From: Wenzhouxiangella sp. 15190
GTDB taxonomy: Bacteria > Pseudomonadota > Gammaproteobacteria > Xanthomonadales > Wenzhouxiangellaceae
Direction: 5' to 3'
Length of the DNA: 24,000 nucleotides
NCBI RefSeq assembly: GCF_003417465.1
Contig: NZ_QVMV01000020.1
Span: forward strand, 24,098-48,097
The notes under the pieces were generated by a model. The model did no database searches. It saw nothing but the letters and a program-made list of their open reading frames with translations, and was not told where the DNA came from. Each line of letters begins with the position of its first letter. Within the stretch, counting starts at the first letter, position 1. Shown here piece by piece: positions 2,329 to 20,751 of this stretch. Position numbers and translations under genes: made by a program.

Positions 2329-4382
2329 ATACCGTCACAGAGATGGACCACCTGGACCGCATCGCGGCGGAAGCCTTCGAAGGCTACCTTGTGCGCAAGG
2401 ACCTGGTACGAAGGTATTCACAGCAGTACCCGGTGCCGACCTACGTGGTCGAGTTCCTGCTGGGACGATACTGCGCCAGTATCGATGATGAAGAAATTGC
2501 GGAAGGCATCTCCGTCGTCGAGAAACAGCTGGATGGCAAGACCGTGCGAACCGGCACGGAGGAGTTGTTCAAATCCAAGGCCAGGGAAGTTGGCTCAGTC
2601 CGCGTGATCGATATCGTTCGCGCCAAACTGGACGCCAAGAATGACTGCTACGTCGCCGAACTACCAAGCCTGGCCCTCAAGGATGTGGAAATTGCCGATT
2701 CACTGGTCCGGGACAACGAGCGGATGCTTACCGACGGCTTCTATGCCGAAGTAACGGTGGAGTATGACCCCTTGGTTGCGCAGGAAAAGAATGGGCGCCC
2801 ATTCAGAATTTCCATGCTGCGCCCTATCCAGATGTCGCAGCCCAAGGTACTCGAGACGCTCGCCAAGGGTCGCGAAAAGTTCACGACCCAGGAGTGGGTC
2901 GATTTCCTGATTCGCTCCGTCGGCCTGGAGCCATCCTCGATGGATGACCGCGCCAAGCAGGTTGTACTGCTCCGAATGGTCCCCTTCGTTGAAAACAACT
3001 ACAACCTTGTGGAGCTCGGCCCTCGCGGAACCGGCAAGAGCCATATCTACCAGCAGATCTCGCCCTACTCACACCTTATTTCCGGCGGGAAGGCGACGGT
3101 CGCCAAGATGTTCGTCAACATGGCCAACGGCCAGCGCGGTCTGGTGTGCCAGTACGACGTGGTCTGTTTCGACGAGGTGGCTGGTATCTCGTTTGACCAG
3201 AAAGACGGCGTCAACATCATGAAAGGCTACATGGCCTCGGGGGAGTTCAGCCGAGGCAAGGAAAGCATCCGAGGGGAAGGCGGCATTGTCATGGTGGGCA
3301 ATTTCGATGTGGACGTTGAGCAGCAACAGCGGATCGGCCATCTGCTCAGCCCTCTGCCGAAGGAAATGCGAGATGACACTGCCTTCCACGATCGAATTCA
3401 CGCTTACGCACCGGGGTGGGATTTCCCCAAGCTCAACCCCAACCAGCACCTCACCAACCATTTCGGGATGGTCAGCGACTTCCTGAGTGAATGCTGGAGC
3501 CAGTCACGGAGCCTCAGTCGGGTCTCTGCCTTGCAGAACCGAGTTTTCTGGGGCGGCGCGCTGAGCGGCCGTGACATCGAGGCCGTTCACAAGACCGTAA
3601 GCGGTCTCATCAAGCTGACCTTCCCCGATCCGGAAATGCCAATACCGGATGAAGAACTGGAATGGATTGTGCGCCTGGCTCTGGAGTCACGCCGGCGCGT
3701 GAAGGAGCAGCAAAAGCGCTGCATGAAGAGCGAGTTCCGAAACACCCACTTCAGCTTCACCTTGGGCGTGGATGGCATAGAGCAGTTCGTTGCCACCCCG
3801 GAGCTTCACAGCGACGAAGCCATTGACGGTGACCCTTTGCCGCCCGGCCAAGTCTGGGCAGTCACACCTGGCGCGGAGGGCGGCCCGGGCCTGTGCCGAA
3901 TCGAAGTCACGATCGGTCCGGGAAGCGGTGTAAAGATCCTGAACCACCCGGTGCCGCCGGCATTCCGGGAAAGCGTTCGAGTTGGGGAGCAGAACCTCTA
4001 TACCCGGGCCGAGGAATTGGTCGGCAACCGCAGCCCCCGCGACCACGAATTCTCGATCCAGCTCCGCTCACTGGACAATGACAAATCCGGCACAGGTCTC
4101 GGAATGGGTGTAGTAGTCGCCCTGGCCGGCGCATTGCTCGAACGAAACTCCCGCGGCGCCACACTAGTCGTCGGCTCATTGAATCTGGGCGGTTCAGTCG
4201 AAATGCTCACCAACCCGGTTTCCATCGCAGAACTGGCCGTCGAGAAGCAGGCCAACACCCTGCTCATGCCAGTTTCGGCCCGGCGGGCACTCAATGACCT
4301 GCCGGACGAGATGTGGACGAAGATCAAGATCGAATTCTATGCGGACGCGGCAGATGCTGTTTTCAAGGCGCTAGAGGACTAG
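2325..4382 (+). CDS. brxL: BREX Lon-like ATPase/protease BrxL
   Basis: 685 aa, the typical BrxL size. It has a Walker A motif GPRGTGKSH and a Walker B-like VVCFDEV, plus a C-terminal Lon-protease-like region (GLGMGVVVALAGALL). It lies directly after pglZ with start/stop overlap. Confidence 0.85.
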   Translation: MNTVTEMDHLDRIAAEAFEGYLVRKDLVRRYSQQYPVPTYVVEFLLGRYCASIDDEEIAEGISVVEKQLDGKTVRTGTEELFKSKAREVGSVRVIDIVRAKLDAKNDCYVAELPSLALKDVEIADSLVRDNERMLTDGFYAEVTVEYDPLVAQEKNGRPFRISMLRPIQMSQPKVLETLAKGREKFTTQEWVDFLIRSVGLEPSSMDDRAKQVVLLRMVPFVENNYNLVELGPRGTGKSHIYQQISPYSHLISGGKATVAKMFVNMANGQRGLVCQYDVVCFDEVAGISFDQKDGVNIMKGYMASGEFSRGKESIRGEGGIVMVGNFDVDVEQQQRIGHLLSPLPKEMRDDTAFHDRIHAYAPGWDFPKLNPNQHLTNHFGMVSDFLSECWSQSRSLSRVSALQNRVFWGGALSGRDIEAVHKTVSGLIKLTFPDPEMPIPDEELEWIVRLALESRRRVKEQQKRCMKSEFRNTHFSFTLGVDGIEQFVATPELHSDEAIDGDPLPPGQVWAVTPGAEGGPGLCRIEVTIGPGSGVKILNHPVPPAFRESVRVGEQNLYTRAEELVGNRSPRDHEFSIQLRSLDNDKSGTGLGMGVVVALAGALLERNSRGATLVVGSLNLGGSVEMLTNPVSIAELAVEKQANTLLMPVSARRALNDLPDEMWTKIKIEFYADAADAVFKALED

Positions 4383-4415: not shown

Positions 4416-5201
4416 ATGGTCTTTTCACGGGAGTTTATCCAGAATCTTCCTGAAGACGAATTTTCTGCTCGCGAGAAACGACACCTAGAACGTAAGTTCT
4501 TTCCCCCGCCGTCAGAACCTCCTTGGCAGAAAGACTTGCGGGCAGGGTGGGAGGAGAACAAGCGCTGGCATGAAATTCTGGAAGCCCCACCCGAGCACGC
4601 AGAGCGAGAGCCGTACCGGATCACCCCAGCAGAACTGCTGCGAAGGGCAGAGGCCCGTCCACCAAAGAAAACCGGAAACACGGTTTCGTCCTTTACCGGT
4701 TGGATTTATTCGCTTTACCAGTCTCGTGCGCGTTCCTCGAGCCTTGAACAGGGTAAGCAGCTGGAGCGCCGACTCGCACAGCTAGATCAGCCCAAACCTC
4801 CAAAAGGAGTCTGGGATCTCCTGTATGTAGGCTACGGGCCCGAGGCACAGTCATCAAAGTCAATTTCCTCGCTTCTGGTTGAAGGAAAGTCGCTTTGGGG
4901 AAAGCCAGATATCGTCTTCAGAGAAAGGGCCACAGGGAGGATTCTGATCGTAGAGCTGAAGTGGTCGCGGGCCACACTGCCATCAGACTGTTGGCCGAAC
5001 GTAAGGGCTCAGCTCTGGGCTTACAGCAAAATCGACGATTTCTCAGATTCTCCAGAGATAATCTTGGCTTGTGAAGCTTGGGGAATGGGGGTAGATGGGC
5101 TTAAACCTCGGGGCTGGTGGCGCTGGCACGCCCGGCGCGAAAGGTGGGAAAAGTATCATGAGGCTCTGTTTTCGTACTTCGGGGGCGAAACGGTATCGTA
5201 A
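4416..5201 (+). CDS. Hypothetical protein with a RecB/Cas4-like PD-(D/E)xK nuclease motif set
   Basis: An AGGAGG Shine-Dalgarno lies 5-6 nt before ATG 4416. The motifs are GKPD165IVF ... ILIVE180LK182 ... AQ199LWAY203, i.e. D...ExK...QxxxY (nt 4908-5024). The gene is on the same strand as brxL and starts 34 nt downstream of it. Confidence 0.7.
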   Translation: MVFSREFIQNLPEDEFSAREKRHLERKFFPPPSEPPWQKDLRAGWEENKRWHEILEAPPEHAEREPYRITPAELLRRAEARPPKKTGNTVSSFTGWIYSLYQSRARSSSLEQGKQLERRLAQLDQPKPPKGVWDLLYVGYGPEAQSSKSISSLLVEGKSLWGKPDIVFRERATGRILIVELKWSRATLPSDCWPNVRAQLWAYSKIDDFSDSPEIILACEAWGMGVDGLKPRGWWRWHARRERWEKYHEALFSYFGGETVS

Positions 5202-5980: not shown

Positions 5981-6355
5981 TTATCCGGTGGTTTCCCGAC
6001 TTCTAAACGCAAGTTTGGCAGGCCGACCACCAAGTCCCTTTCCTGGCACTCCGGTGCGATGGCGCCACGGCCCATTCAGTCGGGGCCGCCAGTCGGGCCA
6101 TTTCCCCAGCGCCGCCAGTACAGCGCGGATAGTCCTCCAATGATCGTATCGTGTCGCTGGCGCTAAATCCCGGCATGCTACCTCCAAGTACCACCGAACA
6201 TGCTTCAGCTTCCAGTGATAGGGGTGCGAGCGGCCGGCACCCCAGCGGGCGCCGATCGCCTCAGAAATTTGTCGAGCGCGAGAGATGTGACCTCTGACGG
6301 CACCAGAGGAACCCGGCTGGGACCGGCGAAGAATCTGTTCAATGCTTGTCCTCAT
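5981..6355 (-). CDS. Hypothetical protein co-transcribed with the upstream tyrosine recombinase
   Basis: 124-aa ORF whose ATG overlaps the stop of the 6352-7314 gene (ATGA-type overlap at 6352-6355). It is basic and W/R-rich. Function was not recognised. Confidence 0.5.
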   Translation of the reverse strand: MRTSIEQILRRSQPGSSGAVRGHISRARQISEAIGARWGAGRSHPYHWKLKHVRWYLEVACRDLAPATRYDHWRTIRAVLAALGKWPDWRPRLNGPWRHRTGVPGKGLGGRPAKLAFRSRETTG

Positions 6356-7314
6356 TTGACGCCTCCTATGTAATTGCCAACGACATCGACACGGACGTGG
6401 CCCAATTCCTGCGAAATCTCCGCCCGAGCGGTCATGTCTAGGTCTCGAGGGGCTATTCGGCTTCCAGTCACTACAGGAGCCTCATGTCCGGTCAGCTGCG
6501 TATAGCGCTCGCATGCATATGCGGCTCGACAATCGTGGTAGCCGGCAATCCCAGCCGCTTTGAGTTCCTGGCGCCCCTCTCGGAGCTCGCCATCGACAAA
6601 TTTGCGATAGGATTCGCCGGCAGCGAGGAGATTTCTGCTGCCTTCCGGGCTCGTGTCCAGTGCCGTTCGGAGTGCCTTATAGGCCTCCTGGGAGACCGGC
6701 ACCAGCCGATCTGCGGTCCGGCCGCCTTTGGCTCCCTCCTGGATGTTCACTACACCCGTCTCTCGGGCTTCCCTTTCCAGTCGCGGAAGGTCGGCCAACG
6801 TCGCCTCGCGCTCTCTCAGACCTAGCTCTCGAGCCAATTCGACCACCGAGGCAGCGCGGTCACGGCCAGCAGCGCGCATGCTGGCGGCAGCTTTCGCCGC
6901 TTGGGCTCGATCGAGGCTGCCGGGTCTATCCTTACGGACATTGCTGCGAGATCCGCAGTAGTCCGAAGGGCTGACCTTGATCCCGCTGTCCCCTGTCATT
7001 GCGCGCAGGACAACCTGCGCACTGGAGATCAGGTTCTGTCCGTAGGCGACAGCTAGGTTCTTGGAAGACACCTGCTGGCCCACGTATTCGGAGAAATCCC
7101 GCAGAAGTCTCTCCGGATCGTTTCGCGCGAGGTCGCGGATTCCCTGCTCCCTCGCCCATTCCGAAAACTGGCCGAATCGACTTGCATGTGTGGCAACGGT
7201 CGCGAAATGACCGTCGCCGTAGTAGTCAATCAGGGCCTCTCGACCCGCATACGCCAGATCTCGGCCGTACCCGAAATTGCGGCTCGACCCGGCCGCGCTG
7301 TATTTCCCAGCCAT
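6352..7314 (-). CDS. Tyrosine recombinase (phage-integrase-fold protein)
   Basis: The catalytic signature appears in order: GLREREATL (Arg), KGGRTADRLVPV (Lys), YHDCRAAYA (HxxR), LGHVRVDVVGNYIG (His...Tyr). I place the start at ATG 7314, which has a GGAGG SD 6 nt upstream, rather than at the ORF-track start 7404. Confidence 0.7.
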   Translation of the reverse strand: MAGKYSAAGSSRNFGYGRDLAYAGREALIDYYGDGHFATVATHASRFGQFSEWAREQGIRDLARNDPERLLRDFSEYVGQQVSSKNLAVAYGQNLISSAQVVLRAMTGDSGIKVSPSDYCGSRSNVRKDRPGSLDRAQAAKAAASMRAAGRDRAASVVELARELGLREREATLADLPRLEREARETGVVNIQEGAKGGRTADRLVPVSQEAYKALRTALDTSPEGSRNLLAAGESYRKFVDGELREGRQELKAAGIAGYHDCRAAYACERYTQLTGHEAPVVTGSRIAPRDLDMTARAEISQELGHVRVDVVGNYIGGVK

Positions 7315-7756
7315 TGCAGGCCTCCAGAACATTGAGAGTGGACCTGTGGCGTAGAAGGTCACTACGCCGCGACATCGATCGTGCAGCCAGGGCAAGCACC
7401 TCATTCTCCCGCCAGGAGTTGGTAAGTGATAACTGGGCTTGCGGTGCCAGCGACCGATGAGGTGCCATGATGCCGCCCATGGCTGCGTCGACAGGTGTGT
7501 ACTGGGGACCTGTCAGCCCCGTTGTGACGCTTCGTCCATCTCCACGACTGTGTCTCCGGTGCTCCGGATGGCGGGGGTCGCGTGCAGTGCAGTGGCCGGC
7601 ACTGCGTGGATGGGTGCGTATTCCGCTTCGCATATCGGCGTTGCGGGTTGCTTTGACAGTGGCGAGGGGCGGCTCGGAGGGAGCAGATGTCTGCCGAGAT
7701 GCCAGGCTCGGGGGCATTCTGATGCCACATTCTGCTGTTGAGCGCGCCGCAACTGG

Positions 7757-7993: not shown

Positions 7994-8493
7994 AACACCA
8001 CGGGGCGTCCTGCACCTGCAGTCCGCCCAAGTGTCGCTTTTGGGGTATTGACCGAGTCAATACGCGACCGTGCCGAAGAACAAGCTTCAGGCCTAGGCCA
8101 TTTGAAAACCCCGTGCGGGGCATGGGAAGGCTCGCGAGTAGCGAGCATGGAAAGACCAGCCGAGGCCGGTCAATTCGAAGGTCAGCAACTAATCAGATGA
8201 TCGCCGCAGAGATTTCTGATCGGCGAGGTGGTTGCTTCCCGGAAAGTTACGGATTCGCAAGTTATACCAATCCTGTGCGCCTCGGGCCCGTCGTTTTTTG
8301 GTTGGCCCTATCGCGTGGGCGAGATTTACGCAGCTCCCGCCTAGCTGATCACCACATTGCCAAGAAGCCCCCTCTCTGTCAAGTAGCCGCACTCCGGTTG
8401 AAAATCAGCCAACGGGGTGGAGGTCCTGATTGTTCCCCGTGAGCATATTTGGACACCAGTCCAGGACCACAAACCCACGGAGTAGCTCCGTGC

Positions 8494-9020
8494 GCGCCAC
8501 TGCATCCGATTGGGCAAGTCTGCCCGCAGAGCTGCAGGGATGAGGGAATCGAGAGCGAATGAAGTTGGAGCACGACGCCTGGCGGGCCTTGCGGATCGAC
8601 ATTCGTAGCCGAAGGTGGAGATTCATTCGCACCGAGCACCCAAGATGGAGTACATCACGGAACAAGACATGGGCCTTGTCGAAAGACTGCGAATCTCCGA
8701 CCAGCTCGCAAGCCAGATCGTCCAGCATGGTCAACTACACGCGGAGCCGCGCGTTCTCAGCCGTGTTTTGGACAGCGACGGATCAACCGTGCACTCCGTG
8801 CTCAAGAACTGGATTTTCGCTCTCATCGAGGCCGAGCCGGAGCGGTTTCAGAACCTGGAGGAAGCGGAGCGGTTTGCTACACGCGCCCTGACAGAGAGCA
8901 TGCTCGAGGCTTTTCCAGGCGCCTGCGAACTGTAAGTCTGCATGCGTGGGTGCTCAGAATTACCCGCTCTTGGCCCGGCGTCCGTCACTCTCCCGCCTTG
9001 GTTGCCCCGAAGGAAAGGTC
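8494..9020 (+). repeat. Copy A of a roughly 0.5 kb diverged direct repeat (module containing a 96-aa ORF)
   Basis: By hand alignment it matches 16033-16560. The match covers about 150 bp of conserved leader, the ORF, and about 85 bp downstream. The right-hand end of the homology is approximate. Confidence 0.7.
8645..8935 (+). CDS. Conserved hypothetical 96-aa protein (paralog A)
   Basis: 77 of 96 residues are identical to the product of 16185-16475 by my hand alignment. Differences are mostly conservative, and both proteins end in EAFPGACEL. I chose the start at the ATG conserved in both copies. Confidence 0.6.
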   Translation: MEYITEQDMGLVERLRISDQLASQIVQHGQLHAEPRVLSRVLDSDGSTVHSVLKNWIFALIEAEPERFQNLEEAERFATRALTESMLEAFPGACEL

Positions 9021-9284
9021 CGTGGCATATTGCCTACTAGAAACGGCTGGAGCGCGCCAACACGTAGGCGCACTCCCCGAAGTAGGAGGTTTCAGGACTA
9101 TATGAACTATCCGCGCATAGCAACATGCCCGAAAATCTAGAAATCGCGTCAACTAATAGACTAGTGATCAGGAGACCAAAAACTAGAGATTTAGGGAGCG
9201 GAATCAAAGTTTCTCTCACTAAAATCCATTTCTCAATCCAAGTTTTCAGATAGAACCCGATCGACCAGTAGGGGGATCTTGCCG

Positions 9285-9989
9285 ATGAATTTGAATGATG
9301 CGCGTAAAAGTATCTCTGAGCATGTAAAAGACCTGATTGACCAGTGCCCTCATTGCGGCGCGAAGTCTCATATCGAGGCCCAGTGGAATGAATGCCATAA
9401 GTACCGCAACGGCGATGCCGAGTTTTACGTGATATTCAGATGTCGGCCATGTAGAAAATTGATATTAAAGACACTCTACTTTGAGCAAAATCGGTATAGC
9501 CAACAAGAAAATCTAACGATGAGAGGGTGGAAAGACACTTTCCCCATGATTTTAGACGAGCATCTAGGTCCTGATGAAAAAGAGCATGTCCCTACTGAGG
9601 TGCTGGAGGACTATGAGGAGGCGTTGCGCTGCAAGTCCGTTGGCGCGGATAAAGCAAGTTGTGCAATGTTCCGGCGTGCGCTTCAGTCAGCTCTAGTCCT
9701 ATTAGGCGCAAAAGCGAAAGAAAACCTAATTAGCCAGATTGATTCGCTTTATAGCTTGCCGGCGGATATCAGGGACTGGTCGCACCAAATACGAATATTT
9801 GGCAATTGGGGAGCCCACCCTGATCAGGATCAATTGAAGAACGTAGATCGAGATGATGTCCTAGAAGTTCACGACTTTTTCTCCAAATTTTTAGTTTACA
9901 CATTCATCATGCCTGCAAAGGTGCGAGCATCGAGGGAACGTCGCGAAGCAAGAACACAACCTGAAAATGATTCAGGCAGTGAAGCGTAG
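9285..9989 (+). CDS. Zn-ribbon + DUF4145-like domain protein
   Basis: Two CxxC pairs are present (CPHC from 9345, CRPC from 9441). The C-terminal half matches the DUF4145 pattern as I remember it (YEEALRC...ASCAMFRRALQSAL...IRDWSHQIRIFGNWGAHPD). ATG 9285 has a GGGGGA SD-like run 8 nt upstream. Confidence 0.75.
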   Translation: MNLNDARKSISEHVKDLIDQCPHCGAKSHIEAQWNECHKYRNGDAEFYVIFRCRPCRKLILKTLYFEQNRYSQQENLTMRGWKDTFPMILDEHLGPDEKEHVPTEVLEDYEEALRCKSVGADKASCAMFRRALQSALVLLGAKAKENLISQIDSLYSLPADIRDWSHQIRIFGNWGAHPDQDQLKNVDRDDVLEVHDFFSKFLVYTFIMPAKVRASRERREARTQPENDSGSEA

Positions 9990-10095: not shown

Positions 10096-10113
10096 CACAT
10101 ATTAAGATATGTG
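10096..10113. promoter_or_regulatory. Operator-like inverted repeat in an AT-rich putative promoter
   Basis: CACATAT (10096-10102) TAAG ATATGTG (10107-10113). It is embedded in TTCAAAATATGGCACATATTAAGATATGTG, just upstream of the small ORF/ATPase pair. Confidence 0.3.
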
Positions 10114-10138: not shown

Positions 10139-10351
10139 ATGCCAGAAACAAATGAACAGCTGATCGAGAAGACAATTTCGCTTCTAGAAGGTGATGACAA
10201 GACAGATTCCTCATTACTAAAGGTGCTGTCCGCACACATTGTAAGGCTCAACCCCAAAAGCACTGCGGTGAGCGACGCCGTGCGGGAAATTGAAGAGATT
10301 GCCGAGAAGAGATCTGAGGAGCCTGAAGATGGCCATGCCGATCACGATTGA
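10139..10351 (+). CDS. Small, strongly acidic hypothetical protein (about 70 aa)
   Basis: ORF 10109-10351, with an internal ATG at 10139 (MPETNEQ...). Its 3' end overlaps the ATPase start and contains the ATPase SD. The start is uncertain. Confidence 0.4.
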   Translation: MPETNEQLIEKTISLLEGDDKTDSSLLKVLSAHIVRLNPKSTAVSDAVREIEEIAEKRSEEPEDGHADHD

Positions 10352-12830
10352 GGCCCTCAGGCTTGAAGGCTTCCGAGCATACCTTCAGCCGCAAACCATA
10401 ACTCTTTGCCGCGGAAAGGCATCGCTCAGCCTTGCTGTGTTCGCACCAAATGCCAAAGGCAAGTCAAGCCTAGTGGACGCCTTCGAGTACTATTTTTCTG
10501 AAGACGCGACGCTGGCCCGACTAGGTAGGCGTCAAGCACAGACTCATGCAGGCCCCCTTGCGATGGAGCATGTCCATGCGGAGAAATACGGGGTCACACC
10601 GGGTGTCCATCTCTGGTTCAAGCAAGGTGGTGACAAGTTCGACGAAGCTCGGCATGTTTCTAAATCCGTAAAAACAGCTCCTCCCTTACCGGATTCAGCC
10701 AAGCGCGTTCTATCTAATACAAAGCTTCCTTTCATTATTCGGGGATACGAGCTACGAGGATTCGTTGAAAAGTATACGCCGGAAGACCGGTACAAAGATG
10801 TTGCCTCCTGGTTTGCGCTTGATCCGCTTTTACGCATTCAGAAGAATCTTCGCGCCCTGCGGCGGGACGTTAAAAAGATAGCCGAGTCGAAGACGGAGGA
10901 AAATGAACGACTCCGGGATCTAAAACAGATCACAAATAATGCTATCACTGCCTGGGATGAGGCCAAAATCTGCAGTTGGTTTAATACTTTGCTTGCCCAC
11001 TTAGATGAAGGCCTGTCGCTGGCCGAGCTTTCTGAGGCAGATACCGGTTACCAGGAACTGGTCAACCGAAAAGCCGCCGAGGATGAACGGCTTGGGCTTG
11101 GCGTGCTCAAGCAGCTGTCCGCTCGCATTGAAGGGCTCTTCTTGGCTCCGGTAAAAGAAGGGGAAAAACCAAAAGGTAATATTTTCGCCTTTGAAAGCGC
11201 CGTCTCAGGTTACACGACCGCTGTCGCGCGCGAATCCGAGGAACGATCTAAGGCGAGCCAGGCAGTCTTTAATGAATTGTGGGTGTCTGCTAAGAAAGTA
11301 TTCGAAAACGAGGAAACCAACTTTCAGAGCTGTCCTGTCTGTGACACGGCACTCACGTCTAGCCCCCACGGCTCACGAGAGAAAATCCTTTCCGGCCTGG
11401 AAGCCAAGCTTGCTGACTTGGGCGCGTACCGTGCCGCTGAAATGGATCTGCAAAAGGCTACCAAGGTCCTCCAAGATGCTTTGCGCGACGTAAAAGTCAA
11501 ACTTGAAAGTGCGATTTCTAGCTTGAAGGATGCGGGCTATGAGGGCAAAGCGAAACGGATCGCTGCCTATCTAGATAAACTTAAGTCCTGGAAGGTTGGA
11601 GACAAAGCGCCACCCTCTGAGAAGGTGGTGACGGAACTGACTGTTTTGCTTACGTCAGTTTCCCGGGAACAAGAGCGTATCAAGAAGCGACAAGGGGAAC
11701 ACACATACGCCAGCACCCTCAAGGTCGCCGACGAGCTCATTCGAATCAAATCCCACCTGGAGAGGATTCAGCGGGTCAAGGCCGAGCTAGAGACACTTCA
11801 GCTGAATCTCAGCAGGCAAGCCCTGGTCATTAACAAAGCGATCGTTGAGCACGTCCAAGACCTCATCGGAACGCTCCAGAGGAGTGTGGATGACCTTTAC
11901 AAGGACATTCAGGGCGGTGGTGGGAACGCACCGCCCATCCGTTTCGAGCTTCCGGGAGAAGATGATCTCAATCAGCAACGCATTCAACTTCTCATCGACT
12001 TCTCAGAGAACCGGAAGGGTGTGGTCCCGAGCGGCTATCTTAGCGATTCCCAGATCCATACACTGGCATTGGCGTTACGTTTGTCCGCTATTCGCATGTT
12101 CAACGATGGGGCCCGCATTATCGTTCTCGACGATGTGGTGACGTCGTATGATGCAGATCACCGCAAGAACATTGCGGCGGTCTTGGCAAAGCACTTTAAT
12201 GACTTCCAAATTATTCTCGCCACTCACGATGAACAGTTTTTTAACCTTCTACAGGACCACCTTTCCACGGCAAAATGGTTGTTCCGCAGAATCACAAAGG
12301 TCGAACCCAACTTTGGCCCCCAATTTCACGACCACCGGACATCGGATGAAGCCATTCAGGCCAAGTTTGATGCAAATGAAAGTGCCGCAAGCCTTATGCG
12401 GCAGGCTGAAGAGGAGTGGTTGCTCGACATTTGCAGGGGCTTCGGCGTGAAGGTCGTCATTCGACCCGTCCATCGGCCTTACCAGTTTGAGCGTGGCGAA
12501 ATGGCAGCTGCCCTCGCCAGCTTCTTGAAGGGCGTCGGCATCCTTCCGCCAGAAGTCCCTGGTATGTCCAATACTTTTATCAGTAGTCTTCAAAAAGGTG
12601 TAGTTGAAAATTTCGCCAGTCATTTCTCCGACAATCCCTACAAGAATGCGTCAATCGGCGATGAAATGGCGAGGTGGGAGGAGTTTCAGTATTTCCGCGA
12701 CCAGTTTGCCTGTCCCTCCTGTGGCAAGCGCCGGTTCAAGAGGCCACCGAGTCTTAGTAAGCCGGTGTGTACCAAGTGCGAAACGCCCTTTGCGTTCACG
12801 CAATCCCAAAAGGCCGAGAGAAGTGGGTAA
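10329..12830 (+). CDS. Rad50/SbcC/SMC-like ABC ATPase with a central zinc hook and a C-terminal Zn-ribbon extension
   Basis: GAGGAG lies 7 nt before ATG 10329. The N-terminus, IEALRLEGFRAY, is typical of SMC-type heads. Motifs: Walker A APNAKGKS (aa 39-46), long helical/charged middle region, CPVC (aa 335-338, nt 11331-11342), signature-like LSDSQ (aa 571-575), Walker B IIVLDD (aa 597-602), LATHD (H633), and CPSC...CTKC (nt 12711-12779). Confidence 0.85.
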   Translation: MAMPITIEALRLEGFRAYLQPQTITLCRGKASLSLAVFAPNAKGKSSLVDAFEYYFSEDATLARLGRRQAQTHAGPLAMEHVHAEKYGVTPGVHLWFKQGGDKFDEARHVSKSVKTAPPLPDSAKRVLSNTKLPFIIRGYELRGFVEKYTPEDRYKDVASWFALDPLLRIQKNLRALRRDVKKIAESKTEENERLRDLKQITNNAITAWDEAKICSWFNTLLAHLDEGLSLAELSEADTGYQELVNRKAAEDERLGLGVLKQLSARIEGLFLAPVKEGEKPKGNIFAFESAVSGYTTAVARESEERSKASQAVFNELWVSAKKVFENEETNFQSCPVCDTALTSSPHGSREKILSGLEAKLADLGAYRAAEMDLQKATKVLQDALRDVKVKLESAISSLKDAGYEGKAKRIAAYLDKLKSWKVGDKAPPSEKVVTELTVLLTSVSREQERIKKRQGEHTYASTLKVADELIRIKSHLERIQRVKAELETLQLNLSRQALVINKAIVEHVQDLIGTLQRSVDDLYKDIQGGGGNAPPIRFELPGEDDLNQQRIQLLIDFSENRKGVVPSGYLSDSQIHTLALALRLSAIRMFNDGARIIVLDDVVTSYDADHRKNIAAVLAKHFNDFQIILATHDEQFFNLLQDHLSTAKWLFRRITKVEPNFGPQFHDHRTSDEAIQAKFDANESAASLMRQAEEEWLLDICRGFGVKVVIRPVHRPYQFERGEMAAALASFLKGVGILPPEVPGMSNTFISSLQKGVVENFASHFSDNPYKNASIGDEMARWEEFQYFRDQFACPSCGKRRFKRPPSLSKPVCTKCETPFAFTQSQKAERSG

Positions 12831-13071: not shown

Positions 13072-13491
13072 ATGAGAGAAATGCCTTCGACGCCACGGAG
13101 TAATAAGCAGCGCTTCTATGGGCTCGTTACGAGCAAGGGAAAGAAGAAGGCTGTTTCGGGTACGAAATCAGAGCAACTACTGCTCGCGGGTGCAAGAATG
13201 CGAGTATTCCACTCGGAGAAAGATCTGTATGAGTGGCTAAGAAAACCGTTGATTCTCCCCGAGACAACGCACTCGTCGCCAGACTGGAAGACCTGCCCAA
13301 CCTGCGGAGTGCATGTTAAAAAGGTTAACTATAAGAAGCACCAACAGCGCGTCCATAAGAATGCGGAGAAGGACCGGAGTCAAGCGAAGCGTGATCCGTA
13401 TGGCCCGGAATACGATGACCCTCCTGATTTTCTAGACCTGCCAAATGTCGTTTCCGGGGGCGGCTTCGGCGTTGGCAAAAAGAAGAAATAG
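13072..13491 (+). CDS. Small basic protein with a C2H2-like zinc-finger motif
   Basis: CPTCGVHVKKVNYKKHQQRVH (Cx2Cx11Hx4H). It has lysine-rich termini. The start codon is uncertain. Confidence 0.45.
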   Translation: MREMPSTPRSNKQRFYGLVTSKGKKKAVSGTKSEQLLLAGARMRVFHSEKDLYEWLRKPLILPETTHSSPDWKTCPTCGVHVKKVNYKKHQQRVHKNAEKDRSQAKRDPYGPEYDDPPDFLDLPNVVSGGGFGVGKKKK

Positions 13492-13540: not shown

Positions 13541-13676
13541 CCACTAGTCAGCGGGGCGCTAGCTAGGGCGATTGCAGCGATTTGATTTATAGAGTAGGGT
13601 CCACGATGGATAGGCGATACCTAGTCCGTCTTGCCCATTGCGGCTTAGGAAAGTCCTATCCGGACTGGAGGGGTTT

Positions 13677-14474
13677 ATGAAGTTATTTCTTGCTTTACTT
13701 GTCTTTGTTCTTGCTGCATGCGCCGGGTCGCCCGAGATTCAAGATTCGTTTCCAAGCTATAGCGGAGAGGTGCTCCCTATGCGGACAGAAATTGATCCTA
13801 CTCTATCTCCAAATTCACGATTAGTGAAGACGGGCGGAAAGTTTCAGATGAGAGAGGGTGGCCACTTCGAGACCCTGGAGTGGGAGGTGGAGTATAGAGA
13901 GACGCTGGAGCGTGGCCTTGACGGAAATATTTCTGCTACGGCAGATATTCTCACATACCTGATAAATGGCCAAGGCTTTGAATCGAATGAATCGATTATA
14001 TCGACCGCATGGGACGCGTCGGAGGATGGTGTCCCCTCTAATGTGCAGTTGGACATTACTGAGCTGCCGAACGAATATCGCCAGCAGTGGTTTATTGAAG
14101 CATTCACTGAAGAAGCGAGAGGCTTGGCGCGGACCTTGGAGCTACCTAATGGATCCGTAAAAACTGGTTCTACGTGGGTGCCACCAGATTTTTCGATTCC
14201 GGATGAAATCAAAGAATTGCAAGATTTTGAGATTGAAAGCGAAGTGAAAGGGTGGAGCTTCGTGAACGGTGAAAGAGTCATTGTGGTGGAAACCTTTTTA
14301 GATGCACCTCCCGGGTCGGCAAACCATAATCTCTCCACTATGGGGCGGGGGTATACGCTTTATGATCCAATTTCCTTTGTGCCTGTAGAGTCCCGTTTTT
14401 CGGCAATTATGAATTTTACAAGGAATGGCGAACGTGTTACGGCGAGGGCGGATCAATATCGTACGTCGAGGTAG
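13677..14474 (+). CDS. Putative lipoprotein
   Basis: A GGAGG SD lies 5 nt before ATG 13677. The signal peptide is MKLFLALLVFVLAAC with a lipobox L-A-A-C. No other motif was recognised. Confidence 0.7.
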   Translation: MKLFLALLVFVLAACAGSPEIQDSFPSYSGEVLPMRTEIDPTLSPNSRLVKTGGKFQMREGGHFETLEWEVEYRETLERGLDGNISATADILTYLINGQGFESNESIISTAWDASEDGVPSNVQLDITELPNEYRQQWFIEAFTEEARGLARTLELPNGSVKTGSTWVPPDFSIPDEIKELQDFEIESEVKGWSFVNGERVIVVETFLDAPPGSANHNLSTMGRGYTLYDPISFVPVESRFSAIMNFTRNGERVTARADQYRTSR

Positions 14475-14674: not shown

Positions 14675-15616
14675 CTAGTACTCGTTAGGAAAAAGAAGTG
14701 GCCTTAGCTTTTCCGATCTACTTGGATGCCGTAACTTTCTAAGCGCCTTCATCATTGCCTCTTCGTCAAACGCATCATCGAGATCGTTCACATCGAAAAA
14801 ATATTGAATAAGAGGAGTGCGAAACTCCGCCTCAAGTGAAGATAGAACCTCCGCAACAGTGGATTTCATTTTCGCTTTTAAGTCACTCGAGGAATCCTTT
14901 GTGTAGTGAGGCTCGGTGTCTGTTCTACCAAAAACAGCATCGAGTAGACGCACGCAGCCCGGGGCATGAAGCCGCGAAAGTGTGTTCAGAATATCTGAGG
15001 TCGAGCCCTCTGACTCTCCGGGGGCCTCTTGTGGGATGTTGAGTTCGCCTGACGTACCGCCGTCGTTAGATGCATCTATCGGTCGAACCTGATCTTCTGC
15101 TGATAATTGCGCTAGCATTTCACTGTAGAAGGATGGGTCACCAAGAAGGGAATTGTCATCGGGGGACAGCAACTGTTCGCCTAGCTCGTGGACACGGACT
15201 ATCGCTCCAACCAACAAGAGGTCGCGTGTGCGTGTGGGGTTGTTGTTGGGATGGTGCTGATGGCTATTTCGATATTCCAGAAGCAGCGAGCAAAGGGAGC
15301 ACATTTCGCCCCATGCTGCAGCCGATTGGGGATCAACAGCCCTAAGTTGTCTCAAGTGTTGACGTGGTCGGAGTTGGAGAGGTCTGTCTCCAGGTGCAAG
15401 AAATCGTGCGATCGTAAAGCGATTGAGGCTCACGCCCAGATCGCCTTCCGGGGATCTATCAAGCTCCGACAGCATAAATACGAAATCATCGACGTCTTCG
15501 CCAGTCTCGTGTTCGATGAGTGAATTGAGGAACAAGCGAAACAAGCGGTCGACGACCGATGAGAGGTGCTCACGGCTAGCTTGCCCAAAGACTAAGTCGG
15601 CAAAGTTATTCTTCAT
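14675..15616 (-). CDS. Hypothetical protein with a HEPN-type RNxxxH motif
   Basis: I place the start at ATG 15616 (GGAGAG SD about 7 nt upstream) rather than at TTG 15640. R116-N-S-H-Q-H121 (nt 15254-15271) follows a hydrophobic helix-like segment, CSLCSLLLEY. Confidence 0.6.
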   Translation of the reverse strand: MKNNFADLVFGQASREHLSSVVDRLFRLFLNSLIEHETGEDVDDFVFMLSELDRSPEGDLGVSLNRFTIARFLAPGDRPLQLRPRQHLRQLRAVDPQSAAAWGEMCSLCSLLLEYRNSHQHHPNNNPTRTRDLLLVGAIVRVHELGEQLLSPDDNSLLGDPSFYSEMLAQLSAEDQVRPIDASNDGGTSGELNIPQEAPGESEGSTSDILNTLSRLHAPGCVRLLDAVFGRTDTEPHYTKDSSSDLKAKMKSTVAEVLSSLEAEFRTPLIQYFFDVNDLDDAFDEEAMMKALRKLRHPSRSEKLRPLLFPNEY

Positions 15617-16032
15617 AAATGCTCTCTCCGCAGGCCGCAATTCGCGGCTGCCATGTTAATCGATGAAGCGACCATTGCCAACTTTCCCAAAGCCAGCGCC
15701 GTCGAGGTAAGGTCAAGTGCTCGACTGACCCCCCGCTCGCTTAGCGCAACGCGCTCTGCGGGAAAATCTAGGATCCTAAGTCAATACACATCTAAGAGTC
15801 ACAACTTTTTTCTGCCTTGCACACTGGCCCTTTGTATGATGACGCCTACGGCAATTGATCACTCCCAACCTTTTGGCACATTTCCCCGAATAGCTCCCAC
15901 TGCGTTACCGGCTCTGAACGGGGCACAGCCCACTGCTCCCTGATCTGAATTCCGCCACGCACCTGCACCCCCTAGAGCGCCTGTCTCGCCCGCCGCTTAC
16001 CATGGAGAAAGATCCAGGGAGCCGCCCTTTGA

Positions 16033-16560
16033 GCGCCGCTGCATCCGGTTGGGCCATTGCGAAAACAAACATTGAAGGGATGAGGGGCTCAAGAGCAACT
16101 GAAGTTGGATCACGGCGCGTGGTGAGCCTTGTATATCCACAATCGTGGCCGATGGTGAAGATTAATCAACACCGAGAAACCAAGATGGACCACGTCACGG
16201 AACAAGTCATCGGTCTTGTCGATAGACTGCGAATCTCCGATCAGCTCGCAAGCCAGATCGTCCAGCAGGGCCAACTACACGCGGAGCCTCGTGTCCTGAG
16301 AGGTGTCCTGAACAGCGACGGATCAACCGTGCACGCAGTACTCAGGAACTGGATTTTCGGTCTCATCGAGACCCAGCCGGAGCTGTTTCAGAACCTGGAA
16401 GAAGCGGAGTGCTTTGTCACACGCGCCTTGACAGAAAGGATGCTTGAAGCTTTTCCAGGAGCCTGCGAACTGTAGGTCTGTAAGCGTGGGTGATCAGAAT
16501 CACCCACCTTTGGCGTGGCTTCTGTCGCTTTTCCACTGACTCCAAGTTCCAAAGGAGATA
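16033..16560 (+). repeat. Copy B of the roughly 0.5 kb diverged direct repeat
   Basis: It aligns with 8494-9020. The ATG offset from the repeat start is 152 nt here and 151 nt in copy A. Confidence 0.7.
16185..16475 (+). CDS. Conserved hypothetical 96-aa protein (paralog B)
   Basis: About 80% amino-acid identity to the 8645-8935 product. It is followed by a hairpin, GGGTGAT (16488-16494) / ATCACCC (16499-16505). Confidence 0.6.
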   Translation: MDHVTEQVIGLVDRLRISDQLASQIVQQGQLHAEPRVLRGVLNSDGSTVHAVLRNWIFGLIETQPELFQNLEEAECFVTRALTERMLEAFPGACEL

Positions 16561-17026: not shown

Positions 17027-17827
17027 ATGCGCATGAAACGAACGATGTTTATGCTGAACTGCGCTGCACTGATTGCAGGGAGCTTTTCGTGCGCGATAGC
17101 AACAGGACAAACCGCATGGGTTGAGCGCGCCCACCTCGCATTCGCCACGGCCAAAAGCACGTCACTTGGCGCGCTCGGCAGACAGCAGATCTTCGTTAAA
17201 CACGATTCAGGTTCCATGCATATCGTCGACCTGGGCCTGTCGCAACGCATTCCCATATCAGCACTATCCATCGATGGAGATGATACTTATTTTTCCACTG
17301 CAGTGATGTGGCGAATGAATGATGCTCTGGTCACCCCTAGGGACATTGTAAAGCTTGCAGCTGACGGTAGCCGAGAAGTATTTTTGCATGGCGAAAATAT
17401 CGGTCTTGATGAAAAAGCGCGCATCTCTGGGCTGTCTGTTGATAACGGAGAAATTCTGATTGCGCTGGATATGCACGCGGAAATCGCAGGGGTAAAGGTC
17501 AAGCATTCGGATATTCTAGAAGTGGATTCAGGGGTAGTATCTGTCCTTCACTCACTCAGCGAGCATGGGCTTCCGGATGCAATGCGAGTTGCAGCAGTAG
17601 ATCGCACAGAGACGGGAACTATTTATCTAACTTTTTCATCCGGAGGCGTTGTTGATGGCATTTCTGCCATGCCTGGTGATGTAATCGAGTTCATTCCAAA
17701 CAGCGACTCATGGAGCACGGCCATTAGGCGCGACCAACTAGGACTTGAATGCAATCCATGTGATGTAAATGCACTTGCACTTGAAACGTCGATGGATACG
17801 ATTTTTAAAGACTACTTTCGCAACTGA
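17027..17827 (+). CDS. Secreted hypothetical protein
   Basis: N-terminal signal-peptide-like segment KRTMFMLNCAALIAGSFSCAIATGQ. It lies 15 nt upstream of the next gene on the same strand. Confidence 0.6.
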   Translation: MRMKRTMFMLNCAALIAGSFSCAIATGQTAWVERAHLAFATAKSTSLGALGRQQIFVKHDSGSMHIVDLGLSQRIPISALSIDGDDTYFSTAVMWRMNDALVTPRDIVKLAADGSREVFLHGENIGLDEKARISGLSVDNGEILIALDMHAEIAGVKVKHSDILEVDSGVVSVLHSLSEHGLPDAMRVAAVDRTETGTIYLTFSSGGVVDGISAMPGDVIEFIPNSDSWSTAIRRDQLGLECNPCDVNALALETSMDTIFKDYFRN

Positions 17828-17842: not shown

Positions 17843-18799
17843 ATGCAATACCAAAGATCCATACTAGTACTAATCCTGATTTTGATCGTACCAATGGCGT
17901 CAGTGGCGGATAGTGGAAGCTATGAGATCAATCAGGCGTGCGTGGAAGACGGATGTTTTGAAGGAGACAGTTCGGGGTTTCCCATTGAAATTTCATCATC
18001 AGGTAATTATTCCCTGACTAGCAGCATCAACGTTGCTGACACTGATACCCATGCAATCCACATTTTAGTAGACAATGTCCGACTGGATTTGGGAGGTAAT
18101 ACGATTCAGGGGCCAAATGTGTGTGATATGGAAACCGAAACATGCAGTCCGGGTGGCGGGGGTCGCGGGATCAAGCTTGCGGACTTTGCAGATCGAAAGG
18201 GGATTCATATCGCCAACGGACAGATCGATGGGTTCGGCAACTATTGCATGAGTGTTGGATTCGCGGGATATGGGGCCGATCTAACGCTTTCAAATTGTTT
18301 TGCCGGTACGGGTGCTGGTCGAGGTGCGGTACTAGAAAGAGTAAGAAGCTATAACAATCGCTATGGGATCGATATAACTGGTGAAGCAATATTGAGACAC
18401 TCAACGTCTGTGGATAATATAGTTAATGGCGTTCAAGTCAATACGGATGATCGCCGGGTGATTATGGAGCGTAACCAGATTCATGACAACGGTTCCAGTG
18501 GCATCCATGCCAATGGGCCATTGCTTGCAAAGGACAATTTCATTTCCGACAACTCCATTGGTATCCGATTAGGTGGCGATGCTGCTGGCAGCAGCCTGGA
18601 AGGCAATGTGATCCGGAAAAATAGCAGTCAAGGTATTTATATTTCGAATCTAAATGGGTCTGCTGGAGTGGCTATTTCGAGTAATGCATTGAGCGGGAAC
18701 GGATCTTCGGATACCTCGCCTCAAATATCTGGACCTGACTCCACACGAGTCATAGAATTGACACCTAACATGTGCAATAACTCGACCACATGTTTGTAG
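17843..18799 (+). CDS. Secreted right-handed parallel beta-helix repeat protein
   Basis: Signal peptide (ILVLILILIVPMASVADS). Repeated units of about 22 aa carry N/G-rich turns (IHDNGSSGIHANG, ISDNSIGIRLGG, IRKNSSQGIYISN, LSGNGSS), typical of PbH1/NosD-like beta-helices. A GAGGTG SD is present. Confidence 0.7.
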   Translation: MQYQRSILVLILILIVPMASVADSGSYEINQACVEDGCFEGDSSGFPIEISSSGNYSLTSSINVADTDTHAIHILVDNVRLDLGGNTIQGPNVCDMETETCSPGGGGRGIKLADFADRKGIHIANGQIDGFGNYCMSVGFAGYGADLTLSNCFAGTGAGRGAVLERVRSYNNRYGIDITGEAILRHSTSVDNIVNGVQVNTDDRRVIMERNQIHDNGSSGIHANGPLLAKDNFISDNSIGIRLGGDAAGSSLEGNVIRKNSSQGIYISNLNGSAGVAISSNALSGNGSSDTSPQISGPDSTRVIELTPNMCNNSTTCL

Positions 18800-19446: not shown

Positions 19447-20751
19447 TTAAGATTTAGTTTTGTGTTCGCTATAGCTCGTCATCAGGTTGCGGAGTGTCGT
19501 TAGTGCTGAGAGCTTTTCCGCGTAGTAGTCGTGGCGGTTATAGTGGCGCCATTGAACACCTGAGAGACCATGGCTCTGAAGCTGGGCGAGCGTGTCGGAG
19601 TGCAGTCCCGCGGCTGCGAGCCGAGTTTCCACGGTTCGGCGCAAATCCCCCAGGGAAAACGGGGCCGCCAGTTCTCCTTCGGTTAGCATCCGCGCAGATA
19701 ATTTCCTAATTAGCTTTCCGACCCGACTTGGGTCGGCCGGGCTCTCCCCGTGAGTAAACGTAAACAGGTACGGTCCCATGTTCGCGCCGCGCATTTCGTC
19801 GATCGCCATTTGCGCCTCGAGCAGAACTGGGACCATGTGCCGTCGGGGCTGTTGTCGCTTTCCTTTCCGGTCCCACAGAGTCAACTGGCCGTCGGCTATG
19901 TCGTCGATCGTCGCCCGGCGAAGTTGCGCCAATCTCTGCCCTCCTAGGAGCAAGTGGGCCCGTAGTAGCGGCCCAGCGGGTTCGTCCGGCAAGCTGATTC
20001 GTCGCCACAGCGCCTGTAGCTCGCCCAGGCTCAGGTGGCGCTCACGTGGTTTGCTCGCTCCCTCGATGGTTGCAACGTCGGCTGCCGGATTGTGGTCGAT
20101 GCCAAACTGGCGGTATCCGCTGGCTTGGGCGCTGGTCCGTGAGCGGAGGGCCAGTGCGTAGGCTCGACGAATATAGGCTCTCACCTTTCGAGCAGTCGTC
20201 AGCTTTCCCGATGTGGTCAGCGGCTCCAGGATTTCCAGACAGTCATCGAGAGACAGTTCGGCGGCGGGTTTCTGCCAGATCGCGATGTGGGGAGCAATGT
20301 GGTTTTCCACTGTGTTTTCTACATCGTCAGCACTGGCCTTGCCGGCTGACTGCAGCTCTCTGACGTAAGTTTCCATCAGAGCGCCGAAGGTTCTGGCTCG
20401 GGAGTCTTCGTCTGGCTCAGAGTTGTTGCGCCGAGCTGCCTCCTGGCGCTCTCTCTCCAGTACTTCGGCAAGATCCTTGCCTTCGGCGTGCAACTCGAGA
20501 TAGCGGGACGAGAGCTGACGTGCGACTTTCCGGGCCTCGGCCAGGCTCAACGGGAGGCCCTCCGAGTCGTACATTGGAAGTGGAATTCTCCGCTGGGGTG
20601 TTCCATAGCGGTAGTAGAAGCGTGGCCCCTTCTTTGTGCCCCTGGCTTGAAGTGCGCCCGCGCCGTAGCCCAATGGCTCGTTGAGTGCCCGGCCTGGCTT
20701 CAGGCTCTCCAGCTGGCGAACGGTAATGGTGGTAGCTTGTCTTCTGGGCAT
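19447..20751 (-). CDS. P4-type tyrosine integrase
   Basis: The N-terminal arm-binding-like region is TVRQLESLKPG...RFYYRY. The core has LLLGGQRLAQLRR (Arg box), GDLRRTVETRL (xxxR box) and SHGLSGVQWRHYNRHDYYAEK (His...Tyr). It is adjacent to the tRNA remnant. Confidence 0.9.
   Translation of the reverse strand: MPRRQATTITVRQLESLKPGRALNEPLGYGAGALQARGTKKGPRFYYRYGTPQRRIPLPMYDSEGLPLSLAEARKVARQLSSRYLELHAEGKDLAEVLERERQEAARRNNSEPDEDSRARTFGALMETYVRELQSAGKASADDVENTVENHIAPHIAIWQKPAAELSLDDCLEILEPLTTSGKLTTARKVRAYIRRAYALALRSRTSAQASGYRQFGIDHNPAADVATIEGASKPRERHLSLGELQALWRRISLPDEPAGPLLRAHLLLGGQRLAQLRRATIDDIADGQLTLWDRKGKRQQPRRHMVPVLLEAQMAIDEMRGANMGPYLFTFTHGESPADPSRVGKLIRKLSARMLTEGELAAPFSLGDLRRTVETRLAAAGLHSDTLAQLQSHGLSGVQWRHYNRHDYYAEKLSALTTLRNLMTSYSEHKTKS

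Follow-up and report, generated by a model that had tools for sequence, protein, structure and literature searches.

The ATPase gene and its lineage, and the small partner gene

The window analysed here, a 24,000-nucleotide (nt) stretch of Wenzhouxiangella sp. 15190 (contig NZ_QVMV01000020.1, positions 24,098 to 48,097), contains two overlapping genes on the plus strand, one for a zinc-hook ATPase of the ATP-binding cassette (ABC) type at 10329 to 12830 and a small one immediately upstream at 10139 to 10351 (positions are those of the window). Translation of the former gave an 833-amino-acid (aa) protein resembling LmuB and Rad50 and carrying a family-specific C-terminal domain, and its exact sequence is deposited at NCBI from Wenzhouxiangella, where it is called "chromosome segregation protein SMC". 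The small gene encodes an acidic protein (isoelectric point 4.5) of 70 aa when read from the ATG at 10139, with an alternative ATG at 10109, and it shares its last 23 nt with the beginning of the ATPase gene.

An original prediction, made from the letters of the window, had described the ATPase as a Rad50/SbcC-like protein with a central zinc hook and a C-terminal extension, and translation placed all the motifs that it listed (Walker A, CPVC, LSDSQ, Walker B, H633, R-x3-E, S-H and the CxxC pairs) at the residues given. Conservation was read from a close alignment of 109 full-length homologs (49-83% identity) and from a diverse one of 46 sequences, including relatives at only 18-30% identity. 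In the diverse set, N41, G44, K45 and S46 of the Walker A motif (APNAKGKS, aa 39-46, 10443 to 10466) were kept in 43-44 of the 46 sequences, the hook cysteines C335 and C338 (CPVC, aa 335-338, 11331 to 11342) in all 46 and P336 in 44, while the H-loop His633 (12225 to 12227) was found in 45. The ABC signature is a variant, LSDSQ (aa 571-575, 12039 to 12053), which was invariant among the close homologs and retained L571 and S572 in the diverse set. The Walker B motif (IIVLDD, aa 597-602, 12117 to 12134), with D601 and D602 present in 46/46 and a D-loop SYD following, is of the hhhhDD type without the catalytic Glu. The ABC head is complete, with a weakened (DD) Walker B. Because the motifs are kept across both the close homologs and those at 18-30% identity, they are under selection and not chance occurrences.

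An AlphaFold2 (AF2) model, built on 48 sequences with a mean pLDDT (predicted score in the local distance difference test) of 82, showed helices in two arms, an N-terminal one (aa 165-326, 10821 to 11306) with several helix breaks and a C-terminal one (aa 350-528, 11376 to 11912). Compared with shuffled sequences, hydrophobic residues in the arms recurred with a 3.5-residue periodicity (z=3.4 and 3.3, respectively), the corresponding values for the two head halves being z=0.2 and 1.7. In the same model, CPVC fell inside a non-helical segment (aa 327-349) flanked by helices 315-326 and 350-362. The predicted order of head, coil, hook, coil and head was supported, as was the position of an invariant, central hook (C335, P336 and C338 did not vary among the 109 close homologs) between two heptad-periodic arms.

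Clustering of open reading frames (ORFs) across 80 loci from species-representative genomes revealed that the sole conserved gene besides the ATPase gene was a small ORF on the same strand, immediately upstream and with its end overlapping the ATPase start; no conserved third gene was found in these loci or in the window. The small gene was clustered in 71 of the 80 loci, and the remaining nine all matched a hidden Markov model (HMM) of the small protein (E 8e-29 to 4.5e-9). None of the full-length loci examined, which ranged from Proteobacteria to Chloroflexota and a thaumarchaeon, lacked it, and remote relatives of the ATPase (21-26% identity) were likewise accompanied by a gene of 61-82 aa overlapping or just upstream of the ATPase start, the encoded proteins sharing a loose D-x2-[VL]-x2-[IL]L pattern with that of the window. 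Searches of Pfam, PADLOC and PDB gave no match to the small protein. The ATPase and the small acidic helical protein form an obligate pair. This partner gene had been absent from the account given in the original prediction. Another upstream gene, which encodes a DUF4145 protein, was considered as a partner and rejected, being absent from all other loci and separated from the small gene by a 150-nt gap with a hairpin; clusters of antisense ORFs inside the ATPase gene were set aside as shadow ORFs.

As to lineage, the only Pfam match of the ATPase was SMC_N, and its top PADLOC match was the LmuB model PDLC03859 (E=3.7e-27, aa 168-642). The same model was also the best for 10 remote family members (E 1e-19 to 1e-31), in some of which the match spanned positions 2-608 of 611. 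Since the model is covered nearly end to end, homology to LmuB extends over the entire head-coil-head part, and the tail falls past the end of the model. The family scored 70-110 bits with this model, and on account of these modest values it was read as a sister of LmuB rather than a member. Against PDB sequences, the family profile found Rad50 heads first (E=1e-9), followed by RecF and SMC, and a Foldseek search with the full AF2 model aligned Rad50, condensin and cohesin SMCs, LmuB and JetC over 700-830 columns, the lowest root-mean-square deviation among the long alignments being that of 9uxh_F, the LmuB of a type II Lamassu. LmuB, which the original prediction had set aside, is thus the closest catalogued family by profile models. 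According to published work, LmuB proteins often carry a CPxCG-like zinc hook, and two classes are distinguished: "long" LmuB proteins of about 800 aa, always with one CxxC and an hhhhDD Walker B, and short ones with hhhhD[Q/S/T/E]. All three traits of the long class were found in the ATPase (833 aa, one CPVC and IIVLDD), with about 165 aa of its length belonging to the tail and not to coiled coil. The lineage of the family is that of Rad50 and LmuB, and the family falls outside the definition of Lamassu.

The C-terminal domain and its zinc ribbon

In the AF2 model, strands 650-667 come directly after the H-loop and were read as still part of the ABC head, so that the tail was taken to comprise aa 669-833, about 165 aa instead of the approximately 185 aa first proposed. 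It consists of a family-specific helical domain (aa 669-792, 12333 to 12704), a candidate divergent HEPN-like RNase, and a terminal four-Cys zinc ribbon, CPSC-x15-CTKC (aa 793-823, 12705 to 12797), in which the spacer had been put at 17 residues and in fact counts 15 (13-18 across the family). In the translation, the residues of interest occur as MRQAEEEW (R691 and E695), NFASHF (S764-H765), CPSC (795-798) and CTKC (814-817). The invariant set is laid out as follows: R691-x3-E695 lies in the first long helix, N761-x2-[S/A]-H765 follows 63-71 residues later (median 69) and G777-D778 opens the last helix. Among the 109 close homologs, R691, E695, W697, E760, H765 and the four ribbon cysteines were invariant and N761 was found in 108, and in the diverse set R691 and H765 were kept in 46/46, E695 and N761 in 44/46 and the ribbon cysteines in 45-46/46, with G777 and D778 also retained. 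At the position before N761, close members have E and remote ones carry various residues; a conserved R never stands there.

A profile of aa 668-833 compared with 1.84 billion representative proteins retrieved 143 clusters, in which the tail domain was always C-terminal in proteins of about 800-860 aa or in apparent fragments; by this search, the domain is private to the family. The ribbon matched zinc ribbons of Pfam weakly and, in Foldseek, the TFIIB ribbon locally. It was also observed that a 1040-aa relative (P0013, locus L092, 338-3460; 73% identical) keeps the helical tail through residue 793 and has a region of about 250 aa of the trypsin-like type (Trypsin_2) in place of the ribbon, with a TIR_2 gene downstream; this protein comes from a single assembly contig and could be an artefact.

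A published survey describes HEPN domains by a conserved upstream acidic residue and an Rx4-6H motif, the second residue of which is usually N, D or H, and reports that some families have lost the R, for which other basic residues may substitute. The survey also counts DUF4145 among the HEPN families and lists fusions of HEPN domains with ABC ATPases (PrrC, RloC, APECO1_4465 and ERFG_01251) and with zinc ribbons. The upstream acidic feature is represented in the tail by E695 (44/46), and the polar residue with x3-H after it by the conserved N761 and H765. When a DUF4145 profile built from the family of the neighbouring window gene was aligned with the tail by hhalign, V-E-N-F-A-S-H...S-x-G-D of the tail was placed on I-F-G-N-W-G-A-H...D-R-D-D of DUF4145 with a score of 17.8 (P=0.018), compared with 11.4 ± 2.3 for column shuffles, one of 120 shuffles scoring as high. 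Pfam DUF4145 (PF13643, 88 positions) gave borderline matches in two remote members, at positions 3-82 (E=0.16) and 11-72 (E=0.058). The likeness to a DUF4145-type HEPN domain comprises a colinear helical domain in these two members, an aligned N-x-G-[S/A]-H...D and the presence of a zinc ribbon in both families, whereas the family tail is without the Arg that precedes GN..AH in DUF4145 and gained no support from Foldseek. Searches of the tail by Foldseek against PDB and BFVD returned no HEPN or nuclease fold. As judged from the profiles, the resemblance of the tail to HEPN domains is suggestive but borderline.

Distribution and genomic setting

A total of 121 pattern matches were found among 185,579 species genomes, the hosts being Alpha-, Beta-, Gamma- and Deltaproteobacteria, Chloroflexota, Acidobacteriota, Planctomycetota, Actinomycetota, Gemmatimonadota, Obscuribacterales and one Nitrosopumilaceae archaeon, a patchy spread typical of mobile defence genes. 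No phage-borne homolog of the ATPase was found. In the window, the G+C content is 62-68% in the flanks and 46-54% between about 9000 and about 19000. Two integrase genes (one of the Integrase_1 type, the other of the phage-integrase type) and mnmC are located on the minus strand at 6352-7404, 19447-20751 and 21584-23443, with the second integrase gene adjoining mnmC at the high-GC edge of the window. The low G+C content and the integrases fit the presence of one or two integrated islands, and the ATPase gene lies in horizontally acquired DNA in which defence genes are abundant. Neither a tRNA gene nor an Rfam match was detected in the window.

In the left part of the window, on the plus strand, a type 1 BREX operon is represented by its 3′ end. 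This comprises pglZ (1-2328), an ORF that starts at the edge of the window but may truly begin upstream of it, and brxL (2325-4382), after which a plus-strand ORF of 261 aa (4416-5201) showed weak PD-(D/E)xK matches of the Cas4/DruK-like type. The DUF4145 gene mentioned above (9279-9989, plus strand) encodes a protein with an N-terminal CxxC...CxxC zinc ribbon and a DUF4145 (HEPN) domain in which RIFGNWGAH occurs. It matched PD-T7-4 of PADLOC (E=1.7e-11) and probably makes up a defence system of one gene by itself; the fetched loci yielded no other DUF4145 proteins. Downstream of the ATPase gene, the ORFs at 13072-13491 and 13638-14474 (plus strand), 14675-15640 (minus strand) and 17027-17827 and 17843-18799 (plus strand) had no match in Pfam, PADLOC or NCBIfam, the last of them encoding a right-handed beta-helix protein. 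It was also noticed that a direct repeat of about 470 nt (85-89% identity) is present at 8490-8960 and 16030-16500, each copy carrying a paralogous ORF of about 96 aa (~8646-8935 and ~16186-16475; 'M.[YH].TEQ..GLV.RLRISDQLASQIVQ.GQLHAEPRVL'), and that the repeats flank a 7.5-kb low-GC block with the DUF4145 gene, the ATPase operon and three ORFs without assigned function. The repeats may be a mark of an integrative element whose cargo modules are arranged in tandem.

In other genomes, the neighbours of the pair included Mrr-nSTAND3, HD-CE-GHKL and DCL/DUF3223 genes, DNA methylases, a giant helicase-restriction endonuclease, other SbcC-like ATPases and integrases, and on a conjugative Bradyrhizobium plasmid the pair lies between an MmeI-type restriction-modification (R-M) system and AbiEi/AbiEii. 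The position after the ATPase stop is occupied by a DCL/DUF3223 gene (229-252 aa), adjoining the stop (at about 1 nt) or overlapping it, in many alphaproteobacterial loci, namely L034, L046, L059, L061-L063, L068, L070, L072, L079 and L087, and in other loci by a gene for an Mrr_cat+nSTAND3 protein (about 780-816 aa) or an HD-CE+HATPase_c protein (about 870-897 aa). Three divergent members of one remote sub-branch (L085, 4308-8400; L088, 391-4513; and L090, 3269-7412, the last between housekeeping genes) have a three-gene operon with 4-nt overlaps, in which a gene for a PDDEXK_1+RNase_H_2 protein of about 490 aa, weakly resembling Cas4, precedes the small gene and the ATPase gene. This order is that of LmuA, LmuC and LmuB, and the ATPases of these operons keep the tail and its invariant residues. 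In L002 (5215-7725) and L080 (4912-7743), a large N6_N4_Mtase DNA methylase gene extends up to or into the beginning of the small gene, an arrangement that recalls the restriction-linked setting of RloC and PrrC.

Interpretation and comparison with known systems

The locus is most likely a new, self-contained two-gene module of the Rad50/LmuB lineage, akin to RloC or Lamassu, that serves in defence against phages or plasmids. For its mode of action, we propose that DNA-sensing ATPase heads gate a fused HEPN-like RNase and that the small protein acts as a brake, a scheme to which we assign slightly less than an even chance. By analogy with Rad50, LmuB and RloC, two ATPase chains would pair via the zinc hook and by ATP-dependent engagement of the heads, which would detect DNA that is foreign or abnormal (free ends, for example). 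As the tail directly follows the last strands of the head, head engagement would bring the two tails together. The tail, judged from invariant residues resembling those of RloC/PrrC and of DUF4145, may be an RNase of a divergent HEPN type. Because HEPN RNases function as dimers, pairing of the tails would switch the RNase on; the activated tail might then cut tRNA or mRNA and so abort the infection. The small acidic protein, encoded at the position of lmuC in Lamassu, could be an antitoxin-like inhibitor of the complex or an aid to sensing, and the zinc ribbon may bind nucleic acid or dock the tail. Tentatively, and with a good deal more doubt than belief, the module might be described as a 'one-polypeptide Lamassu', in which a LmuB-type zinc-hook sensor has an Arg-less HEPN RNase and a zinc ribbon fused behind its head, is fired by head engagement driven by ATP and DNA, and is held by a 70-aa acidic brake.

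Several findings weigh against a catalytic tail. The tail has no counterpart of the Arg that is canonical in the Rx4-6H motif of HEPN domains, and the loop bearing the motif has low pLDDT in the AF2 model. The two borderline Pfam DUF4145 matches come from one sub-branch and so are not independent, and the DUF4145 HMM scored the tail sequences of the family at 6 bits or less, which is noise. No PrrC or RloC model matched the isolated tail. In addition, the effector may lie elsewhere, as variable genes begin 0-1 nt from the ATPase stop or overlap it in many alphaproteobacterial loci and a separate PD-(D/E)xK/RNase-H-like gene occupies the LmuA position in one sub-branch. It is accordingly possible, if rather unlikely in our judgement, that the ATPase is a Lamassu-like sensor with a non-enzymatic tail, of a docking, regulatory or nucleic-acid-binding kind, that separate and interchangeable effectors do the killing and that the small protein is a middle component of the LmuC type. 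The proximity of LmuB, the nuclease-small gene-ATPase order with its 4-nt overlaps in three divergent members, the DCL/DUF3223, Mrr-nSTAND3 and HD-CE-GHKL genes abutting or overlapping the stop, the replacement of the ribbon by a trypsin-like domain in one relative and the lack of a nuclease fold match for the tail in Foldseek would all fit such an arrangement. However, in the window and in many other loci the genes on either side of the pair are unrelated or run on the opposite strand, none of them being a candidate effector, and one of the three-gene operons (L090) has housekeeping flanks; the Mrr-STAND and HD-GHKL proteins each already join an NTPase with a nuclease or HD domain and may be separate systems; no gene with a LmuA-type C-terminal domain was recognised; and R, E, N, H and D residues that remain invariant at 20% identity are more typical of catalysis than of docking.

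Two further explanations would place the ATPase among known proteins. One is RloC, the anticodon nuclease with which the original prediction had compared it, and the comparison was made here with the published description and the PrrC/RloC models. In that description, the anticodon-nuclease signature is R-x3-E-x36-52-H, often with a Ser before the His, and Geobacillus RloC has R692, E696 and H737, of which R691/E695 and the S-H of the family are an echo. The ATPase further resembles RloC and PrrC in uniting an ABC head, an insert with coiled coil and CxxC, and a C-terminal R-x3-E followed by S-H, in that order, in one polypeptide, in having Asp instead of Glu after Walker B, where a PrrC model matches, and in the DNA methylase or R-M genes adjoining some of its loci. 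The analogy is a reasonable one, R-x3-E and S-H being kept, but the distance from E to H is 63-71 residues as opposed to 36-52, no Pfam AAA_13 match was found in the ATPase and the PADLOC PrrC match is limited to aa 595-652 around Walker B. Moreover, the tail profile retrieved only its own family, the ATPase is nearer to LmuB, and neither a zinc ribbon nor an obligate small partner has been described for RloC. The family is not RloC, and we regard an RloC-type reading as very improbable. The other explanation, a housekeeping protein of chromosome maintenance or DNA repair (of the SMC, SbcC or RecN type), is suggested by the NCBI name, the SMC_N match and the RefSeq annotation of a plasmid homolog with the Gene Ontology term double-strand break repair; it is scarcely probable at all, in view of only 121 matches scattered over unrelated phyla and one archaeon, the occurrence in a low-GC island with integrases and defence genes and on conjugative plasmids, and the lack of an Mre11/SbcD or kleisin partner.

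The defence finders do not call the system, PADLOC giving only a weak LmuB-like match and NCBI the names "SMC" or "AAA family ATPase", and no description of the family was found in the literature searched, a search that did not cover the 2020 ABC-ATPase classification. SMC/Rad50-like sensors recur in immunity, as in Lamassu, Wadjet and RloC and, in humans, Rad50 and Smc5/6, and how DNA sensing by the head is coupled to the effector in Lamassu is only now being worked out. If the effector is fused to the head and has one tiny partner, the pair would offer a minimal system in which to study this coupling; if the tail is non-catalytic, the family would still provide an example of a sensor related to Lamassu, its neighbours being interchangeable and its middle component new and very small.

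Among known systems, the pair shares with Lamassu, where LmuB is also known as DdmC and which belongs to the ABC-3C systems, the best HMM match, a single hook, the hhhhDD Walker B, a defence-island setting, a small gene at the LmuC position and a nuclease gene at the LmuA position, the latter in one sub-branch. It differs in that neither the window nor the 80 loci had a recognisable gene for a LmuA-type effector bearing a docking domain at its C-terminus, in the size of the partner, which has only 60-80 aa and no detectable similarity to solved chains including Lamassu subunits, and in the C-terminal domain of about 165 aa past the end of the LmuB model. The terminal zinc ribbon had been held foreign to both RloC and LmuB, and as far as could be tested this holds, the 611-position LmuB model stopping at the end of the head. 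With Rad50/SbcC, which gave the top structural and profile matches, the ATPase has in common the split ABC head and the central position of the zinc hook; it departs from them in its shorter, interrupted arms, the DD of its Walker B, the additional tail domain and a mobile, patchy spread; no gene for an Mre11/SbcD phosphoesterase was adjacent in the window or conserved across the loci. Should the 'one-polypeptide Lamassu' prove correct, it would link the designs of Lamassu and RloC in one family.

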